Shown here in pieces: positions 8,928 to 55,345 of a stretch of 64,000 nucleotides of DNA. Under the pieces are notes generated by a model, which was given only the letters and a program-made list of their open reading frames with translations, was not told the DNA's origin and searched no databases. The position numbers and the translations under genes are program-made. Position 1 is the stretch's first letter, and every line of letters starts with the position of its first letter. The stretch covers positions 504 to 64,503 of the forward strand of contig JANBVJ010000003.1 of assembly GCA_024239055.1 (NCBI GenBank), given 5' to 3'. Origin of the DNA: Patescibacteria group bacterium (GTDB lineage Bacteria > Patescibacteriota > Minisyncoccia > Minisyncoccales > UBA10102).

Positions 8928-9487
8928 AAGTGGATATTCATAAGACAAAGAAAAAATATCATGTGTTGATGGCAGATCCACCACACGAATACAAAAATCA
9001 AAAAACAGGTGGAGGAATGAAGTCAGGTGTTTCAAGTAAATATAAAACAATGTCATTAGATCAGATTTGTGGTTTACCAGTAAGAAAAATTGCTAACAAG
9101 AATTCAGTTTGCTTCTTATGGATTACAACTCCACTTATGGATAATGGATTTAGGATATTAGAAAGATGGGGATTCAAATACAAGACTCTAATTGTTTGGG
9201 ATAAGAGTGATAGTGGAGGATGGGGATTCTGGACAAGAACAGCAACAGAATTTCTACTAATAGGAGTTAAAGGAAAAGTAAAAGCATTCATGTCAAAGAG
9301 AACAAATGTAATCAGACACAAAAGAATTGGTCATTCTGTAAAGCCTGATGTGTTTAGGGAGATCGTAGAGGAATTAACAAAACAATTTGGTAAAAATAAA
9401 AGAATGATTGAACTTTTTGCTCGCAAACATCCATCTAAAAAACACTATGCGACAAAATGGGACTATTTCGGTAAAGAGTATTACTAA
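8924..9487 (+). CDS. MT-A70-family N6-adenine DNA methyltransferase
   Basis: ADPPHEY (DPPW-type motif IV variant), YKTMSLDQI, FLWITTP, WGFKYKTLIVWDK, HSVKPD and ELFAR match the MT-A70 pattern. Confidence 0.8.
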   Translation: MKVDIHKTKKKYHVLMADPPHEYKNQKTGGGMKSGVSSKYKTMSLDQICGLPVRKIANKNSVCFLWITTPLMDNGFRILERWGFKYKTLIVWDKSDSGGWGFWTRTATEFLLIGVKGKVKAFMSKRTNVIRHKRIGHSVKPDVFREIVEELTKQFGKNKRMIELFARKHPSKKHYATKWDYFGKEYY

Positions 9488-9675: not shown

Positions 9676-10272
9676 ATGCCTAAAAGAATAACTCAAAAGT
9701 ACAAGAGAATAGTAGATCCACTAATAACTAAAAGAGATGGAAATGTTTGTTTTTTTGATAAAATGCCTTTTGTTCCAGAGGTATTAAAATGGAGTAAAAC
9801 ATATCATCATTTGAATAAAAACACTGAGGATAATCATCCTGTAAATTTAGTTTTTGCTCATGAAGAATGCAATAGACTTTGTGAAACAAATCCAGAGTAT
9901 CAAACAATGTCAAGTCAAAAATTAAATGATAACCAAAAATATCATCAAGGTTTAGAGATTGAAGTTGTTGCGCATAATGATGAAGATAAAGAAACAAACG
10001 TAGAGATAGATACTAATGAATTATACAACAAGTTTGCTAATTCAGAACTTTTAGAAAAATTAACATCTCAAGGTGGAAAACCAGCACCGCATGAATCAAT
10101 TTCGTTTAAGGAAACATCTCTTGACATTGCGTATATGGTAAGGGAAGTTGTAGGACATGGATCGCCAATAACAGCAGGGAGAGCATTGGATACAGAATGT
10201 TCAAGTAAGGGAGAATTTGATAAATACAAAGAGCAGGGTGGAAAATGGAGAATAAGGAAGAAACAGACATAG
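9676..10272 (+). CDS. HNH endonuclease-domain protein
   Basis: Start set at ATG 9676 (MPKRITQ). HHLNKNTEDNHPVNLVFAHEECN fits H-N-H spacing. Confidence 0.6.
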   Translation: MPKRITQKYKRIVDPLITKRDGNVCFFDKMPFVPEVLKWSKTYHHLNKNTEDNHPVNLVFAHEECNRLCETNPEYQTMSSQKLNDNQKYHQGLEIEVVAHNDEDKETNVEIDTNELYNKFANSELLEKLTSQGGKPAPHESISFKETSLDIAYMVREVVGHGSPITAGRALDTECSSKGEFDKYKEQGGKWRIRKKQT

Positions 10273-10472
10273 AAGATGAAGAGATCGCATTAGAAGATAA
10301 AGAAATTACTCCAGAAGAAGATCCAGAAAAAGTAATAGAGATCACAGAAGATGATCCAGAATGTAAAGAGACATCAGAAGGCGATCAAATTATAGGAGAA
10401 GGAAAATCTATCCTCAAACCAAATCCTAAAGCCAAAGAAAGTGGTCAAAGGTCATGGTTTGATCTCTCATGA
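10245..10472 (+). CDS. acidic hypothetical protein
   Basis: 75 aa, E/D-rich. Confidence 0.45.
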   Translation: MENKEETDIEDEEIALEDKEITPEEDPEKVIEITEDDPECKETSEGDQIIGEGKSILKPNPKAKESGQRSWFDLS

Positions 10473-10711
10473 GTCTTTTTAGAAAAAGAGATTACATTAA
10501 TGACACAATTAGAACTACAGGCAAAAAAGATAATAGAATCATTCAAAAAAAAGCAAAGTTACCTACTCAAGATAAGACAAAATACTCAGTTTGTCCAAGA
10601 TGTAGCAAGAAGGGTTATGTTAGATCAAAAGGTTATTGTAAACTTTGTAAATTCAGGTTTACTCCGAAGAAAAGGTTTACCTACGAAAAGTTTACCTATA
10701 AAAAATGTTAA
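10469..10711 (+). CDS. basic zinc-ribbon protein
   Basis: ATGA overlap; CPRC...CKLC, K/R-rich; preferred over the alternative frame 10500..10742. Confidence 0.45.
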   Translation: MSLFRKRDYINDTIRTTGKKDNRIIQKKAKLPTQDKTKYSVCPRCSKKGYVRSKGYCKLCKFRFTPKKRFTYEKFTYKKC

Positions 10712-10720
10712 CACACATAG
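10700..10720. repeat. 21 nt direct repeat, copy 1 (AAAAAATGTTAACACACATAG)
   Basis: Identical to 11029-11049. Confidence 0.8.
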
Positions 10721-11028
10721 GATCGTTTTTGTGTTAGTATGACATAATCTAGATGCCTTTTCCTAGATACGCAATGTCGAGGATTCGGTACATTCGGGCA
10801 TGGGATCGTTATGAAAACATTCCGTTTCATTATAACCCCGATCTCATGCCTTTCCATTTTATATTAGGTTGGGATCGAAGTTACTTGCATAAGTGGAATT
10901 CATTCTTTGGGCATGTTTATCTTGACATTTTCATGTCCAGATCCCAACTCACACACCTTCATTTCGACTTCATAACTGGACTGGTAATTACTATGAGAAT
11001 TGTCTATGTCTATTGTCCAAAAAATGTT

Positions 11029-11049
11029 AACACACATAGCAAGCAACCA
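11029..11049. repeat. 21 nt direct repeat, copy 2
   Basis: Identical to 10700-10720. Confidence 0.8.
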
Positions 11050-11090
11050 AAATATCCTTATTTTTCTGATCGGGGAGGCTATGTGTGTGT

Positions 11091-11141
11091 ATGTGTGTGT
11101 ATAAAAAACGCAGAGAGAGAGACAGAGAGACGACCATTTGC
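11091..11141. repeat. Purine/pyrimidine microsatellites: (ATGTGTGTGT)x2 then a GA-rich tract
   Basis: atgtgtgtgtatgtgtgtgtat (11091-11112) and cagagagagagacagagagac (11121-11141). Confidence 0.85.
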
Positions 11142-11424
11142 ACCATAGTAGTTGACTCAATAATTCTAAATACGTTGAATGAATGATGAAATTAGTGGGA
11201 TCTGTCCGATTCAGACATGTACGCCTCGTACTCCCCTAAAAATTTCTAGGACAGACCTACTACTTTTTAATAAGTTTAAAACCTAGACTACCTGATCCAT
11301 ATTGGATTTGGCATAGCAGGGTTTTATTTTTGTTGTAATGTATGATTACCCCAAAATGTCCAATTGAATTCTGATGTGCCAAATTCTTTTTTCTAAATGA
11401 CTACGTAGGCATTTTAAATTGTGG

Positions 11425-11490
11425 GTTGACATCAAAAAGTGTATGTGTTTTCATCTCGTCTCACATTTGCTGTAACCAGCAGATGTCAAC
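11425..11490. other. 9 bp perfect inverted repeat GTTGACATC / GATGTCAAC
   Basis: Arms at 11425-11433 and 11482-11490; follows CTACGTAG at 11401-11408. Confidence 0.6.
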
Positions 11491-11677
11491 TCACTTTAAT
11501 TTGAATCAAAAAAACATTTACTACAAATACATTCAGTAGGATCGATCAAGAGAGTATTACATAGACTACAATGTTTTTCCAAGAATTGCTACGATTTTTT
11601 CTTACATATTAACCTAAAGCCGATCAAACGTTAATCAAAACAAACCTTATCAACGATTTCATCTATGTAGAATTGTG

Positions 11678-11734
11678 TCGGGAAAGTTTGGGATTCAGAC
11701 AGCAATGTTAGTTTCTCATTTGCTACTTTCCCGA
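11678..11734. other. 10 bp perfect inverted repeat TCGGGAAAGT / ACTTTCCCGA
   Basis: Arms at 11678-11687 and 11725-11734; about 120 nt upstream of the 11851 gene. Confidence 0.6.
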
Positions 11735-11850
11735 TCAATTAAGTCGGAGCAAAGCGAGTTACGATGAAGATTATCTCATTGTGAGGCATTTACTAGAGCA
11801 ATGATCTGAGTAACTAAATTTTTATCCCTATTTTAGAATAAGAAAGGAAT

Positions 11851-12903
11851 ATGGTATCAAAAGTCTTAATCTTAGCAGGAGTCATCGTAGTTGCTTTTGT
11901 TTTAGCAGGTGGTATGGGATTAATTAATTTTGGTGGCGCACCATCAGGTGGAGTTCCACAGCAAGTAGTTACTACTGTAGCAGGAACAGCGTTTTCAGGA
12001 GAATTAGATGTTCTATTACGACATGCTAATTCATTAGATAATTCCGATCAATTCCAAGAAGGAGCAAATAGTGACATTCACACAGTTTTCTACAAATCAC
12101 TTGACGGAGTACAATTTAGTTCAATAGGAGAAGGAGCATTAGGAACAGGTGGAGCATCGAGAGTAACAATTACACCAGACATGAATAGCATCCTATATGC
12201 AACAATAAATGTAGCAGGAATGTCACAACTTTATTCTGATCCAGAATTTACACAAGCAACCAATTCTAGAATAACAGAATTTACGTTTGAAGATGTCACA
12301 AATAACGGAGTTAAAGAATGGCTTTACAAAATAGGTTTACGTGGAATTTCAGTTCCTATTGCTGGACAAGATGCAAGTTCATTATCAATTATTGATCAAA
12401 CATGGGTTATGGCATTTCCAGTAACAATCAATTCACCAGCAAACATTCTAAATATTGGAAATCAAGCAGGAACTGTTAACTTCATCAGATGGGAACTAAC
12501 AACACCACAAGGTACAGCAACAGCACAAACTGAATATACAATTCAAATTGATAAGGTCGGTGGTCAAGCAGGAACAGAGTTTTGGGATGTAGGTCTAACC
12601 ACACTCGAAATTCCAAATATCGGTATAAAATCACTTACAGAATTTGATGAACAATTGCTTAGTGCCACAGAAACCCTCTATAAATTCAAAGTAGGTGATT
12701 CAGCAGATTTCGCAAATGCAAATTATGTAATAACTCCACAAAACGCAAACAATGTACATCCAATACCAGCAAAGATTGTTACAAGCCTATCAGATAACGG
12801 ACAAAACGATAATCTTGATGTGACATTGACTATAAAATGGCTAGATCAACGTGGTGGATCTCTTACACCAATAACAGATACAGTTCGATTAGACGAATCT
12901 TAG
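11851..12903 (+). CDS. putative major structural / surface protein with N-terminal membrane anchor
   Basis: 350 aa; N-terminus KVLILAGVIVVAFVLAGGMGLI; T/G/N/A-rich, Cys-free. Preceded by the longest noncoding region and followed by two strong stem-loops. The structural role is inference. Confidence 0.55.
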   Translation: MVSKVLILAGVIVVAFVLAGGMGLINFGGAPSGGVPQQVVTTVAGTAFSGELDVLLRHANSLDNSDQFQEGANSDIHTVFYKSLDGVQFSSIGEGALGTGGASRVTITPDMNSILYATINVAGMSQLYSDPEFTQATNSRITEFTFEDVTNNGVKEWLYKIGLRGISVPIAGQDASSLSIIDQTWVMAFPVTINSPANILNIGNQAGTVNFIRWELTTPQGTATAQTEYTIQIDKVGGQAGTEFWDVGLTTLEIPNIGIKSLTEFDEQLLSATETLYKFKVGDSADFANANYVITPQNANNVHPIPAKIVTSLSDNGQNDNLDVTLTIKWLDQRGGSLTPITDTVRLDES

Positions 12904-12938
12904 CATCAAATTTTTATAATTTTATAGTGATGGGTATG

Positions 12939-13011
12939 TGTTGATGATGAGAGAGGTTCTTGATGTAGTCATTAATATCAGGCTAATCCTCCTGCAAACT
13001 CATCATCAACA
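12939..13011 (+). other. 13 bp perfect stem (TGTTGATGATGAG / CTCATCATCAACA) with 47 nt loop
   Basis: Read directly; lies just after the 11851..12903 stop. Confidence 0.6.
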
Positions 13012-13013
13012 TT

Positions 13014-13067
13014 TTGTGTGACCAGTAAGCCCTAATGCCCAATTAGTGTAATCTCAAAGTCACACAA
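13014..13067 (+). other. 9 bp perfect stem (TTGTGTGAC / GTCACACAA)
   Basis: Read directly; second hairpin before the ATG at 13081. Confidence 0.55.
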
Positions 13068-13080
13068 CCCATTTTGTTAC

Positions 13081-13260
13081 ATGGTAAAGTACAACTGGTT
13101 CCAAATTACTACCATAATTATCGGACTTTATCTAATTTTCGAAGGTATTGGTTCATTTGTAATATTTGACGATCAAAACGACTTCTTCCAAGCAGGAAGA
13201 ATATTTAGGGTTATTGCTGGATTCTTCTTAGTGTTTGTAGTATCGAGGATGTTGAAGTAA
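13081..13260 (+). CDS. small hydrophobic 2-TM protein (59 aa)
   Basis: Just under the track cutoff. MVKYNWFQITTIIIGLYLIFEGIGSFVIF...RVIAGFFLVFVVSRMLK. Confidence 0.45.
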   Translation: MVKYNWFQITTIIIGLYLIFEGIGSFVIFDDQNDFFQAGRIFRVIAGFFLVFVVSRMLK

Positions 13261-36429: not shown

Positions 36430-36583
36430 AGCAAAACCATTCGGTGGTTACAACATAAAATTTGAAAACTGTCCAGAAAGTATGGAAGATGTTTTCGGAA
36501 AAAAACCACTTAGTCCATCAGAGATGACAAAGGTTCTCTGGAAGTTTATAAAAAAACATAGACTGTCTGGATACAATGATTAA
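36422..36583 (+). CDS. SWIB/MDM2-like fragment (53 aa)
   Basis: Hand translation: MPKAKPFGGYNIKFENCPESMEDVFGKKPLSPSEMTKVLWKFIKKHRLSGYND. Resembles the first half of SWIB (G..P.sR.Ev.K.lW.YIK.h.Lqd) and then ends. Confidence 0.45.
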   Translation: MPKAKPFGGYNIKFENCPESMEDVFGKKPLSPSEMTKVLWKFIKKHRLSGYND

Positions 36584-36807
36584 GCACCAATAATCCACTC
36601 TGGTACTAATCTCAATTTAGAACCACATGTTTTACAGAAGATACGACCATCAATTTCATAGGCATCATTAACTCCATGTGATTCACAACAGAATTTTTTC
36701 AGAACTACCTTGTCATAATTACCAAACACGAAGTTGAGACGGAGAGGCTATTAACATATTAGGATAACAAGAAAAATTGACTTTGGAGTGGAAATAAAGG
36801 GGTAAAC

Positions 36808-36856
36808 GGTCAGGTTTTTTGAGTTTGGTCAGCAATACATGACCGCATCTGGTCAG
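36808..36856. repeat. GGTCAG x3 direct repeats plus one inverted copy
   Basis: GGTCAG at 36808, 36827 and 36851; CATGACC at 36838-36844; noncoding. Confidence 0.5.
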
Positions 36857-37020
36857 ATTTATCACTTTTTTTTTCTAGGCGATATATATACAAAAACTAC
36901 CAGAAAATCCTCAGAAAAAACTAAGATTTTACAAGGGTTGTTTGTGATGCCATTTTTCATTCACAAGTGATTTTGTTGTGATATAACTTTGAGATTTTTT
37001 ATTAATTTACGAATAAGAAA

Positions 37021-37112
37021 AATTTCAAATCACTACGTAGTATATTTGAATTGTTCGTTTATGTGAACAAACAATAAAACATATACTACTACTACTACTA
37101 ATTTACTTAATG
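37021..37112 (+). promoter_or_regulatory. Promoter/operator cassette A
   Basis: AATTTCAAAT-ca-CTACGTAG-ta-TATTTGAATT; TTGTTC-N8-GAACAA (37051-37070); ACATATA box (37079-37085); (ACT)x5 (37085-37099); ATG 37110, about 28 nt from the box centre. Confidence 0.65.
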
Positions 37113-37268
37113 GTAGCAAACAAAAATCGAGTTAGCAACTCACAAAAATCGGAAGAGAAAAAATTTAGTATGAATGAAACTGAATTATTAGAATCTAGTA
37201 GATTAAGAAAAATATTTTCTGAGCAAAATTTAGAATCAACCAAACTAGGAAAGAGGTTTTACGTTTGA
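37110..37268 (+). CDS. first-gene small protein of cassette A (52 aa)
   Basis: MVANKNRVSNSQKSEEKK...; N-terminus and its DNA are near-identical to those of 40140; TTGA junction to the next gene. Confidence 0.45.
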   Translation: MVANKNRVSNSQKSEEKKFSMNETELLESSRLRKIFSEQNLESTKLGKRFYV

Positions 37269-39771: not shown

Positions 39772-39843
39772 AAAAAACTCAAAAAAAGTAAAAAAATCTA
39801 AAAAAAGTTAAAAAAACCAAAAAAACCAAAAAAACCAAAAAAA
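39772..39843. repeat. Eight phased A-tracts (A6-A7 every 9-10 bp)
   Basis: A-runs start at 39772, 39781, 39790, 39800, 39810, 39819, 39828 and 39837, including (AAAAAAACC)x3. Confidence 0.85.
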
Positions 39844-44520: not shown

Positions 44521-44580
44521 GTTTGTTCACTTTGAACACACAACTCTTTAATACTACAACTACTACTACTACTACTAATG
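44521..44580 (+). promoter_or_regulatory. Promoter/operator cassette C
   Basis: TTGTTC-acttt-GAACA (44523-44538); CTTTAATA box (44546-44553); (ACT)x6 (44559-44576); ATG 44578. Confidence 0.6.
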
Positions 44581-52513: not shown

Positions 52514-52582
52514 TTTGTTCATAAGTTATAGAGAAAACAATATAAGATATACTACTACTACCAAAGGTGTAGAATTACTATG
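52511..52582 (+). promoter_or_regulatory. Promoter cassette D (degenerate)
   Basis: GTTTGTTC half-site, TATAAGATAT box, (ACT)x3, AGGTG SD-like, ATG 52580. Confidence 0.45.
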
Positions 52583-52711
52583 AGTCAGGTACATGAAAGA
52601 AAGGTGCATTGTGATAACTGTGGCTACTCTTGGGTATCAAAGTCAGATATGATTATGATTACATGTCCAAGTTGTATGCGCAAAGTCAATACTGAGAAGA
52701 AACGTAAGTAA
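52580..52711 (+). CDS. 43 aa zinc-ribbon protein (paralog of 57799..57918)
   Basis: MSQVHERKVHCDNCGYSWVSKSDMIMITCPSCMRKVNTEKKRK*. Confidence 0.45.
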   Translation: MSQVHERKVHCDNCGYSWVSKSDMIMITCPSCMRKVNTEKKRK

Positions 52712-52800
52712 ATTCGGTCAACTAACTGTTTAGGTGGAACAGGGGAAATGCTTCTTTCGGATAACGAAATTTTTTGTTAATTTACGCCCAATATTTTTTC

Positions 52801-52975
52801 TAAACCGCTACGTAGCATAATTGAAATTCAATCAGGCATCAAAACAGGAAAAAACTAAAGTCGATTTTTGTCGTTACCTGCACCTGCTGGATAACGCTGA
52901 GTCACGAACAGAAGGTGTTCAGCAAAAAGCACATACAATACTTTATAACTACTACTATAACTACTACTACCAATG
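52801..52975 (+). promoter_or_regulatory. Promoter/operator cassette E
   Basis: CTACGTAG (52808-52815) + TTGAAATTC; GAACA-gaagg-TGTTC (52906-52920); CTTTATAA box (52941-52948); ACT repeats; ATG 52973, about 28 nt from the box centre. Confidence 0.6.
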
Positions 52976-53068
52976 GCTAAGAACAACCATAAGACCGTAG
53001 AATCGGAGGCAGAAATCAGCATAGTGATTCTTGACGAATCACAGACCATAAGAGGTCAGAAAAATTGA
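52973..53068 (+). CDS. first-gene small protein of cassette E (31 aa)
   Basis: MAKNNHKTVESEAEISIVILDESQTIRGQKN*; N-terminus paralogous to 44578; TTGA junction. Confidence 0.35.
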   Translation: MAKNNHKTVESEAEISIVILDESQTIRGQKN

Positions 53069-54551: not shown

Positions 54552-54712
54552 CTGTAATAAAAATAGAAGAAGGAGATAAATTAATTGCTGATGAAGGTAT
54601 ATCTGAATGGATTGTAAAAAGAGATTATGATTTCAATCCAGTCTTAGAACTGTTACCGTTTGATGAGAAAGCACATCAAAAGAGATTGAAGAATGGAGAT
54701 TATGAAAATTGA
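54548..54712 (+). CDS. hypothetical small protein (54 aa)
   Basis: TTGA at both ends. Confidence 0.4.
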   Translation: MTVIKIEEGDKLIADEGISEWIVKRDYDFNPVLELLPFDEKAHQKRLKNGDYEN

Positions 54713-54867
54713 GTTTCTTAGGATTTTTCAGTCCATTTAGAATTCTAACTGGAATGATCTTAACAGCATTCATAATTACACCAGTAATTGCTGATCCAGC
54801 AGAAACATTCACGACAGTTTCAGAATTTATTGCGAAACTGTCACCAATTTTTGAGGGTGGTGTTTAG
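54709..54867 (+). CDS. small membrane protein (52 aa), paralog of 54012
   Basis: MSFLGFFSPFRILTGMILTAFIITPVIADPAETFTTVSEFIAKLSPIFEGGV*. Confidence 0.4.
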   Translation: MSFLGFFSPFRILTGMILTAFIITPVIADPAETFTTVSEFIAKLSPIFEGGV

Positions 54868-55035
54868 ATGGGATTAAGAAGTGCTTGGAAAGAAGATGGA
54901 ATTCGCAGACTTGAAGATGAACTGGAATTCAATCAAGACATGTTTGATACATACGGAGATCAAGAGTACAAAGACATGATTATAAGAATTAAACAAGAAC
55001 TTGACGAAGAAAGAGCAGACTTGGAGGAATTATAA
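54868..55035 (+). CDS. hypothetical small acidic protein (55 aa)
   Basis: ATG directly after the upstream TAG. Confidence 0.4.
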   Translation: MGLRSAWKEDGIRRLEDELEFNQDMFDTYGDQEYKDMIIRIKQELDEERADLEEL

Positions 55036-55037
55036 AG

Positions 55038-55196
55038 TTGAGTATTTGTGATTTCTGTAAAAACGAGAATGCTACTTGGTTGTCAGCAAGTGTACATGCA
55101 GACTGTTTGAATTGGGGAGATGGAGAACACATCAATCCAATAGATCAAAGAGAGTGCGATTGTAATTGTTGTTATCCACAGGAGATAAGAAATTGA
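55038..55196 (+). CDS. small Cys-rich protein (52 aa)
   Basis: TTG start; MSICDFCKNENATW...ECDCNCCYPQ. Confidence 0.4.
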   Translation: MSICDFCKNENATWLSASVHADCLNWGDGEHINPIDQRECDCNCCYPQEIRN

Positions 55197-55345
55197 ATTT
55201 AGAAATAAGAATCAGTTTATCAGAAAAGGAACAAAAGAAAGTATTCAGTTTCTTGAGAGGACTTGATGCAGAATTTATGGTTTATAATGCAGTAGGAGAT
55301 CGAATTTACTCTACTTATGAGGGAGATAAAATTGATCATAGGTAG
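55193..55345 (+). CDS. hypothetical small protein (50 aa)
   Basis: TTGA overlap. Confidence 0.35.
   Translation: MNLEIRISLSEKEQKKVFSFLRGLDAEFMVYNAVGDRIYSTYEGDKIDHR

Follow-up and report, generated by a model that had tools for sequence, protein, structure and literature searches.

The stretch of DNA analysed here, referred to as the window, comprises 64,000 nucleotides (nt) of contig JANBVJ010000003.1, which carries the metagenome-assembled genome (MAG) label 'Patescibacteria'. It belongs to a mobile, low-GC, single-strand-coded and uncultivated element, a virus or a plasmid. Between two of its gene blocks we confirmed the presence of a gene-free stretch of 1.1 kb (10700-11850), which begins at the end of a gene for a zinc-ribbon protein of 80 amino acids (aa) and ends at the start codon of a gene for a 350-aa protein (Table 1). 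Because all long open reading frames (ORFs) of the window lie on the + strand, transcription of this strand through the region is to be expected.

Near its two ends the upstream part of the region contains the 21-mer AAAAAATGTTAACACACATAG, of which exactly two copies occur in the 64 kb window compared to 0.02 expected by chance. The copies, R1 at 10700-10720 and R2 at 11019-11039, are 319 nt apart from start to start with 298 nt between them, and R1 overlaps the TAA stop of the zinc-ribbon ORF. A first-pass annotation of the window, made from the letters alone, had recognised this exact pair but placed the second copy ten nucleotides too far downstream (11029-11049). The TG and AG microsatellites that it reported are present, with TATGTGTGTG repeated 2.3 times at 11080-11102 and an (AG)n tract at 11112-11130. 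What had gone unnoticed is that CTATGTGTGT at 11079-11088 is the inverted complement of the core ACACACATAG found in both 21-mers, and the TG 'microsatellite' is explained by this inverted copy of the repeat core, hereafter R3'. Two inverted repeats further downstream also proved real, one of them longer than first described (11421-11433/11482-11494, 13 nt, 92% complementary), the other being a perfectly complementary 10-nt pair (11678-11687/11725-11734). The motif CTACGTAG is indeed found at 11401-11408, of which only the part CACTACGT is conserved across relatives, and GATTCAGACA does occur at both 11208 and 11692, but this pair is at chance level (about 0.6 exact 10-mer pairs expected per 1150 nt, a rough estimate) and neither copy is conserved in relatives. 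The 'visibly higher GC' ascribed to the segment between the 21-mers turned out to be marginal (37.5% versus 31-39% in the flanks and ~33% in the window). Comparison of the region with the rest of the window revealed nothing shared but the 21-mer pair, and a scan for tRNA and tmRNA genes gave none. Neither the 21-mer nor the conserved gapped pattern TCTCATTTGCT...GTCGGAGCAAAGCG had a match in IMG/VR, JGI metagenomes or GTDB genomes.

Table 1. Features of the gene-free region and its flanking genes, in window coordinates
Feature	Position	Strand	Remarks
Upstream gene, 80-aa basic zinc-ribbon protein, eL37-like	10469..10711	+	Last codons and stop inside R1; conserved in L025, L026, L027
R1, first 21-mer copy	10700..10720	+	Core ACACACATAG at 10711-10720 is the 5' strand of the R1:R3' pairing
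S-left, two-tier hairpin	10771..10852	+	Stem 10796-10808/10839-10851, inner stem, loop ATTCCG 10819-10824, unpaired ACCCC 10835-10839
S-mid, dispensable middle segment	10853..10946	+	Contains TATA-like CATTTTATATTA
S-right, conserved block	10947..11018	+	Ends exactly at the start of R2; found in L029 (23 nt, 91%) and partly in L026
R2, second 21-mer copy (11019-11039), with spacer of 37-38 nt	11019..11077	+	Local 11-bp hairpin with R3'
R3', GCTATGTGTGT + TATGTGTGTG	11078..11102	+	Inverted complement of R1/R2
Purine (AG)n tract	11112..11130	+	Length and sequence vary across lineages
Box TTGACTCAATAATTCTAAATAC	11152..11173	+	About 22 nt 5' of C1; conserved in all eight lineages, including L027 and L029
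C1, hairpin + T5 (11264-11268)	11195..11268	+	Stem 11195-11207/11249-11260; C-rich loop CTCCCCT 11231-11237; all eight lineages
C2, long hairpin + T6 (11387-11392)	11304..11392	+	Lineage-specific interior; terminator-like; at the cargo-insertion hot spot
Box CACTACGTAGGCATTTTAAATTG, then hairpin 1	11399..11494	+	Stem 11421-11433/11482-11494; inner stem GCTG/CAGC 11465-11476
C4, A-rich unstructured spacer	11495..11677	+	Identity 82-96% in close relatives; partly recognisable in L026
Hairpin 2, TCGGGAAAGT/ACTTTCCCGA around a variable loop	11678..11734	+	Inverted repeat 100% complementary
Promoter-like box GAGTAACTAAATTTTTATCC...TAGAAT (box 11808-11839)	11808..11850	+	Directly 5' of the ATG at 11851
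Cargo gene, 350 aa, N-terminal transmembrane helix and immunoglobulin (Ig)-like domains	11851..12903	+	AlphaFold2 model, Foldseek

The region was compared with related loci, denoted by L and a number. Close relatives, in which it lies upstream of the 350-aa gene, are L001 (99.9% identical DNA), L005, L006 (partial), L007 and L010; more distant ones were found through the upstream ~200-aa HNH-like gene and comprise L025 (89% aa identity), L026 (76%), L027/L028 (63%) and L029/L030 (64%). A gene-free gap follows the block of a ~200-aa, a ~80-aa and a small zinc-ribbon gene in seven other lineages, with lengths ranging within 992-1330 nt (L005 1090 nt, L007 992, L010 1053, L025 1330, L026 1171 and L027 1214), and in L029 two inserted genes divide it into parts of 780 and 649 nt. 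The first of these two L029 gaps contains the blocks as far as C2, and the second the hairpin-1-like and promoter blocks. This arrangement suggests that the region consists of two conserved modules (10700-11392 and 11399-11850), separated by a hot spot for the insertion of cargo genes. At the position of C2, stable hairpins were found in the window, L007, L005, L010, L026, L027 and L029, while L025 has a 54-aa ORF in its place; the two genes of L029 are inserted downstream of C2. S-left is present in the window, L005, L007, L010, L025, L027 and L029. S-mid is deleted or replaced in L007 (110 nt), L010, L025 and L029 and present in L005 and L027. Hairpin 2 is kept in L005, L006, L007 and L025 (with one G·U pair) and absent from L010, L026 and L027, and thus appears to be dispensable. 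The box TTGACTCAATAATTCTAAATAC is a candidate promoter or protein-binding site.

To judge constraint, identities were set against those at four-fold degenerate sites of three flanking genes, which range from 0.47 to 0.67 between the window and L026 or L027 and from 0.28 to 0.57 between the window and L029. S-left shares 0.89-0.97 identity with its counterpart in L027, where four-fold sites reach 0.56-0.64; for C1 and L026 the corresponding values are 0.81-0.91 and 0.47-0.67. Since identity exceeds that of four-fold sites at this greater divergence, the conserved blocks appear to be under purifying selection, and the stretches between them do not. The first-pass annotation had allowed that the region might be unconserved filler or the 21-mer a common repeat; neither proved to be the case. 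It had also stated that no credible ORF lies between 10712 and 11850. Taken literally this is incorrect, as an ATG-initiated ORF of 131 aa spans 10753-11148, but we rejected this ORF as a gene: among 5.8 billion proteins it has no homologue, nor a called copy of itself, it is frameshifted in L007 by the 110-nt deletion and interrupted by an early stop in L005, and all substitutions between the window and L005 that were read by hand off the alignment are amino-acid-changing.

In L025, L026 and L027 the zinc-ribbon gene has a conserved 3' end that corresponds to the core of R1; in the last two of these the protein ends in ...NTHT*, encoded by AACACACACACATAG. In five of seven lineages the stop codon falls within R1. 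All type-1 lineages have R3', whereas R2 is found only in the window, L001, L007 and L025 and is absent from L026, L027 and L029. Where the window has ~42 extra nt with R2 (about 11025-11065), L026 reads TGTCC-AAAAAAATA-CTGATCGG. L005 and L010 have an unrelated upstream gene and another repeat, AAGCGCATAGGTC (13 nt), which occurs in three to four tandem copies and once more beside its own inverted complement GTACTTATGCG... These distributions indicate that the inverted pair R1/R3' is probably the deep feature and the direct pair R1/R2 a secondary duplication of R1 beside R3', which would either have arisen twice or been lost three times.

R1 and R3' have remained complementary in six lineages, whose helices are of two unrelated sequences (ACACACATAG/CTATGTGTGT and CACTCGCATAGGTAC/GTACTTATGCGAGTG), and all four mismatches are G(R1)·T(R3'). 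The cognate duplexes of these six lineages have predicted energies of -19 to -29 kcal/mol, corresponding to z-scores of -2.9 to -5.0 relative to shuffled sequences, and type-1 R1 segments bind the R3' of L005 weakly (-6.5 to -11 kcal/mol). Both ends of the helix have switched type together in L005 and L010, where the segment between them is ~95% identical to that of the window.

An att-like duplication flanking a small insert had been put forward for the two 21-mers, the enclosed segment being given as 330 bp. Presence and absence of this segment among relatives speak against it, as L026, L027 and L029 have a single repeat copy and yet carry S-left and/or S-right, and no empty-site relative was found. 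R2 does abut the right end of the conserved segment, but the left conservation edge lies ~50 nt past R1, and there is no second copy of the enclosed segment in the window or at other loci. Moreover, no integrase, resolvase or transposase was detected among the 103 ORFs of the window (PF00589, PF00239 and transposase families, E <= 1e-3), a search in which divergent enzymes could be missed. We rejected a target-site duplication or att scar because the enclosed segment predates the duplication, is single-copy and has a conserved part that is set off from R1, and because no recombinase is detectable.

With regard to RNA structure, the consensus fold of S-left (RNAalifold) is more stable on the + strand than on the - strand (-20.3 versus -15.5 kcal/mol), and its variation is G·U only. 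The two-tier fold is kept in L029 through three double substitutions, with the AUUCCG loop and the ACCCC bulge unchanged, as judged by hand alignment of minimum free energy (MFE) folds. The closing stem of C2 likewise differs between L026 and the window by two double substitutions, again from hand alignment of single-sequence folds; MAFFT does not align L029 and L026 correctly in the blocks of S-left and C2, so that the compensatory changes there rest on such folds. For C1, 96% of the cells are paired and variation is between GC and GU only. A covariance model of C1 recovered a + strand copy in L029 on which it had not been trained (35.5 bits, E 1.3e-6) and found no other copies, C1 being single-copy. 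Hairpin 1 has 89% of its cells paired and five pairs that have changed on both sides, and its covariation score is 0.236 versus 0.147, with none of 500 shuffles reaching 0.236. When the paired columns of C1, hairpin 1 and S-left are counted together, the ratio of columns containing G·U to columns containing A·C is 18:3 on the + strand, compared to 11:9 for helices predicted by the same program on the - strand. The + strand of the whole domain 10695-11145 is also more stably folded than its shuffled versions (z -2.53, 0 of 100), which is not the case for the - strand (z -0.18), and + strand z-scores in seven relatives range from -2.2 to -3.4. The (AG)n tract pairs with a U-rich run 3' of R1 in the + strand MFE fold of the window. 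Folding z-scores of the C4 spacer are about zero or positive.

A run of four to six T follows C1 in five of seven lineages, and a T-run follows C2 in the window and its closest relatives. The stems of C1 + T5 and C2 + T6 have long or branched loops, and a scan for consensus terminators gave 0 sites; a scan for sigma-70 promoters and terminators was at or below chance. Rfam 15 gave 0 matches at gathering score in the whole window, and for 10600-11900 at E <= 10 the matches reached 16-24 bits compared to gathering scores of 38-219, all of them to eukaryotic small nucleolar RNA and microRNA models; the Rfam/Infernal scan thus matched no known RNA family. A C/D-box small RNA around ATGATGA (11183) was considered and rejected, the box not being conserved in L007 or L005 when read by eye. 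As for the non-coding RNA locus that had been listed among the possible roles, the conserved hairpins, their compensatory and G·U changes and the purifying selection are in its favour, and its transcription is what we infer.

Conservation, complementarity, strand-biased G·U variation, covariation and the presence or absence of cargo together point to a conserved composite intergenic control region of an uncultivated mobile element, most likely acting as structured RNA of the + strand, a reading that we hold with about even confidence. The + strand structures are best read as a 3' untranslated region, terminators or small RNAs, combined with a promoter. The + strand transcript of the upstream operon would run into the region, of which the 5' module (10700-11392) would form the structured 3' end. 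Here the last codons and the stop of the zinc-ribbon gene, contained in R1, would pair with the UG-rich R3' located 190-360 nt downstream and thereby enclose S-left. C1, with its CUCCCCU loop, and C2 each combine a hairpin with a U-run and may be terminators and/or small RNAs that are released or separately transcribed. For the sub-lineage of the window, R2 beside R3' would offer a competing local hairpin, that is, an alternative partner for R3'. A ribosome terminating at the stop codon in R1 would be expected to open R1:R3', and the fold may in this way sense translation upstream. The 3' module (11399-11850), consisting of hairpin 1, the spacer, hairpin 2 and the promoter-like box, would drive whatever gene lies downstream, with cargo genes inserting between the modules and directly after the promoter box. 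A bolder form of this proposal, which we consider unlikely, is that these are undescribed structured RNAs of undescribed elements, probably archaeal and of DPANN type. The long-range helix with the stop-codon region of an eL37-like gene, the two-tier hairpin and a C-rich, anti-Shine-Dalgarno-like small RNA would then together constitute a translation-sensing, possibly protein-bound switch between early and surface-protein genes.

Several observations weigh against a structured control RNA. We infer transcription, the RNA ends and termination from the sequence, and the switch and binding by the eL37-like protein likewise. Among close relatives the region diverges faster than the four-fold sites of the 350-aa gene (0.76-0.90 versus 0.93 identity) and is full of indels, so that much of it appears to be weakly constrained. 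The analogue of R1:R3' in L029 is not significant (z -1.3), the covariance model of S-left matches L029 weakly (12.7 bits), C1 is without double changes, and no site emerged from the simple terminator scan. With few lineages, which moreover recombine, the covariation counts have low power. RNAalifold favours G·U, which biases the strand tally, a bias limited by the - strand control, and in three relatives the - strand of the domain folds as well or better. Moreover, G·T is the most tolerated mismatch in single-stranded DNA too, and a strand-specific DNA hairpin would give the same bias. Finally, a TATA box at CATTTTAAATTG would place the start of the transcript within hairpin 1.

These points bear on the alternatives. 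Tolerance of G·T in DNA hairpins fits an element acting at the DNA level, such as a replication origin, a single-strand origin or origin of transfer (oriT), or a partition or packaging site, perhaps bound by the zinc-ribbon protein. We regard such a function as rather improbable, although the position of the long gene-free region is conserved, a HerA/Zot-type ATPase and a DprA-like protein are among the products of the element, and the three to four tandem 13-nt AAGCGCATAGGTC units of L010 and L005, with their distal direct copy and inverted copy, resemble iterons. Tandem iterons of the 21-mer are absent from the window, where the single R1 is preceded by two 15-nt units inside the ORF, and a tandem period of 13 nt is out of step with helical phasing, which we count against an origin. 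The type of repeat goes with the 3' end of the upstream gene and not with a binding protein common to the lineages; the proteins encoded upstream in L005, L010 and the window are unrelated. In L029 the region is split by cargo genes. GATC density in the region is twice the window mean and in the top 2.7% of windows, with an MT-A70 methyltransferase encoded 1.2 kb upstream; as a signal of an origin or packaging site, however, this is only a two-fold enrichment and not the window maximum. GC skew is positive across all 64 kb without a sign change at the region, and no recognisable initiator, relaxase or terminase was found among the 103 ORFs. The suggestion of a packaging or terminal region found no support either, and the contig of the window and four other contigs read straight through. 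Recombination at the repeats, either inversion through R1/R3' as in a phase switch or excision through R1/R2, appears very improbable. Inverted repeats of 10-15 bp that co-vary do flank 190-360 bp in six lineages, as expected of an inverton, 298 bp lie between direct repeats, the product of the downstream gene is a fast-evolving surface protein of pilin/adhesin type, and the assembly of L001 breaks right after R3', at 11089/11090. However, the segment has the same orientation in eight assemblies (window, L001, L005, L007, L010, L025, L027 and L029) with no empty site, no serine or tyrosine recombinase or invertase was found among the 103 ORFs in 64 kb, the arm mismatches are all of the G·T kind that recombination would not produce, and the 350-aa gene lies 830 nt away and is absent in four lineages that keep the repeats. 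The L001 break, moreover, is explained equally well by copy-number variation of the tandem 10-mer. A simple-sequence contingency locus is not supported either: TG and AG tracts differ among relatives and one assembly breaks there, but the tracts are short ((TG)4-5 and (AG)5) and 700 nt from the optional gene.

The rapid divergence among close relatives, beyond that of neighbouring four-fold sites, and the many indels would suit a largely non-functional stretch of decayed gene remnants and slippage-prone repeats, in which only the proximal promoter is functional and the hairpins arose through template switching or by chance. Each of S-mid, hairpin 2, C2 and R2 is absent from at least one lineage, the small repeats GATTCAGACA and CTACGTAG do not exceed chance expectation or lack conservation, and the open frame through the S segment has faint amino acid-level similarity in L027, consistent with an old pseudogene. 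This account is nevertheless distinctly unlikely: S-left and C1 are conserved far above four-fold sites at deeper divergence, the helices show compensatory and strand-biased G·U changes, a copy outside the training set is picked up by the C1 model, R1 and R3' have stayed complementary in both sequence types, and the ORF 10753-11148 is without a homologue. We find it highly improbable, too, that all 1.1 kb serve a major structural gene at 11851 as its promoter and long leader, a possibility that the first-pass annotation had listed. The region does lie directly upstream of that gene, and a conserved promoter-like box ends at its ATG. This box, however, is located 24-33 nt from the ATG and leaves little or no leader, and in L025, L026, L027 and L029 the region is retained in the absence of the gene. 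More remote homologues of the gene (57-78% identity) occur in a different gene context, preceded by gaps of 90-390 nt with none of this sequence, and the protein is pilin/adhesin-like with no capsid-protein match. What stands of the proposal is the promoter, in the form of the conserved box at 11808-11839.

The promoter-like box (11808-11850) is conserved in L005, L006, L007, L010 and L025 and diverged in L026 and L029, where it lies 5' of other genes. Boxes of the type TTTTAT(C/A)C are found 24-33 nt before the ATGs of block-initial genes (11851, 25386, 32528, 35419, 44578 and 58288). These genes have no Shine-Dalgarno sequence between box and ATG, whereas operon-internal genes have GGAGG or GAGGT. 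This archaeal-type pattern of a TATA box and leaderless starts is at odds with the MAG label 'Patescibacteria'.

AlphaFold predicts for the 350-aa protein an N-terminal helix followed by Ig-like beta-sandwich domains (pLDDT 84.8), and the best Foldseek matches of this model are the Gram-positive pilins BcpA, SpaD and RrgB and CNA-type adhesins. With no capsid match in the viral structure library and no PHROG or Pfam match, this N-terminally anchored, pilin/adhesin-like protein does not bear out the earlier label 'major structural gene'. Its aa identity to relatives (0.85-0.95) is no higher than the identity at four-fold sites (0.93), which suggests a fast-evolving surface protein under diversifying selection. 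Because four lineages keep the region without the gene and distant homologues of the gene are without this sequence, the region appears to belong to the backbone of the element and the 350-aa gene to be cargo placed after its promoter. Relatives of the protein were not found in IMG/VR, and GTDB genomes gave one short contig, binned as Anaerolineaceae. More distant elements carry two to three tandem paralogues of the gene (in L003, of 348, 353 and 344 aa). In L025 and L026 the promoter-like box is followed ~100 nt later by a homologue of window 12891-13260. This part of the window includes a 59-aa ORF (13081-13260) directly 5' of a 485-aa gene, and relatives have a called gene of 58-59 aa before a gene of 485 or 505 aa; the counterparts of the ORF are at 5104-5280 in L025 (hydrophobic product) and at 4725-4904 in L026. 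Such a counterpart is probably the first gene after the promoter box in lineages without the 350-aa gene.

The 80-aa protein, with the motif CxRCxxKxFxxxKGYCxxCxF, has L37e/eL37, a ribosomal protein of archaea and eukaryotes, as its best match in Pfam, NCBIfam and a PDB profile search. Scores are below the cut-offs of Pfam (16.8 versus 27.6 bits) and NCBIfam (16.8 versus 71), and in the PDB search the best E was 0.0047 and 12 of 14 matches, including the top eight, were eL37. The protein thus seems to have a zinc-ribbon resemblance to eL37 and not to be a member of the family; a mimic of an rRNA-binding protein would be unusual in a mobile element.

From S-left through the 350-aa gene, the DNA of L005 and L010 is ~90% identical to the window. 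In the stretches upstream (3294-4145 in L005 and 1127-1878 in L010, compared to window 9676-10711), the products of their '~200-aa' genes share only ~30% identity with that of the window, and their small Cys-rich proteins are unrelated to that of the window. A downstream identity of ~90% next to unrelated or diverged upstream genes marks a sharp recombination boundary near window position 10771. L001, which comes from another sample, has a gap of 100 N (9140-9239) at the TG/AG tracts, with the same 55 nt (window 11090-11144) on both sides. The break corresponds to window 11089/11090, in the second unit of the tandem 10-mer. The gap has the signature of an unresolved k=55 branch in the assembly graph, and the population is probably heterogeneous here; no other hint of such heterogeneity was seen, and the copy-number variation mentioned above accounts for this one equally well.

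As for the element as a whole, about a dozen of the 103 ORFs have Pfam matches (MT-A70, HNH, GmrSD, SNF2, HerA/Zot ATPase, DprA-like, MscS, DUF7447 and DUF7859), and neither a capsid protein nor a terminase was found among them. The window has no match in the GenBank phage collection (blastn) or in IMG/VR, and we found no description of this element family in the literature. The palindromes AGCT (135 expected), GGCC (29), CCGG (19) and CGCG (7) are absent from the 64 kb, and GATC is over-represented (357 versus 235). None of the 30 related loci contains GGCC or CGCG, while AGCT or CCGG reappear in particular lineages. This pattern has the appearance of strong, lineage-specific avoidance of restriction sites and points to a mobile element under restriction pressure. 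The TATA-plus-leaderless box pattern, the eL37-like protein and the binning of one relative as Anaerolineaceae, an unrelated phylum, suggest an archaeal host rather than Patescibacteria. By the criterion of a 60-aa ORF, other long gene-free gaps of the window lie at 36430-37264 (835 nt), 54552-55316 (765 nt) and 52514-53064 (551 nt); they have no sequence in common with the region described here. A tandem A-rich 9/19-nt repeat, AAAAAACCA (7.7 copies), and (TAC)n runs occur directly 5' of ATG codons (39772-39843, 44552-44577 and 37084-37100).

Elements of this family are 65-115 kb in size, reside in uncultivated hosts and encode almost no proteins with recognisable relatives. If structured RNA is indeed what the region produces, conserved cis- or trans-acting RNA structures would be added to what the family carries. 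The region marks a site of cargo acquisition, including that of the fast-evolving pilin/adhesin-like protein, and is useful for annotating related contigs and for understanding how these elements exchange surface genes. The analysis also removes three misleading labels, namely those of an att scar, a genome terminus and a capsid-gene leader.

Among known systems, the region is comparable to the inter-operon regions of phages and archaeal viruses, which also lie between co-oriented blocks and have hairpin + U-run units, a promoter box at the 3' end and a long-range stem that uses the end of the upstream ORF. It differs from them in its length of 1.1 kb, unusual for a dense genome, in the loop motifs AUUCCG, ACCCC and CUCCCCU and in the internal hot spot for cargo insertion. 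As in the autoregulatory mRNAs of ribosomal proteins (L1, S8 and L4 leaders), an eL37-like gene adjoins a structured RNA, which here includes the end of its own ORF. In contrast to those mRNAs, the structure is at the 3' end and not in a 5' leader, the likeness to eL37 is below thresholds, binding is putative, and L005 and L010 keep the architecture with unrelated upstream proteins. Invertons (fimS, hin and the invertible promoters of Bacteroides) share the short inverted repeats on either side of a few hundred bp that precede a gene for a fast-evolving surface protein, whereas here no recombinase was detected, a single orientation is seen in eight assemblies, the arms have G·T mismatches, and the gene 830 nt away is optional. 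Iteron origins and centromere-like sites of plasmids and phages are likewise gene-free, repeat-rich and GATC-dense, and the tandem 13-mers of L005 and L010 recall them; unlike such sites, the region has no initiator gene, no skew switch and, in the window, no iterons, and its repeat type follows the 3' end of the upstream ORF. GOLLD, ROOL and HEARO are comparable as structured non-coding RNA candidates in a mobile element, but the present structures are small hairpins rather than one large fold and have no match to these families in Rfam at E <= 10. The C-rich unpaired motifs resemble those of the C-rich-loop small RNAs RsaE and RoxS and could pair with ribosome-binding sites of the GGAGG type, a putative function. 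The region thus corresponds to no known RNA family, whereas a structured intergenic control region is a known kind of feature.

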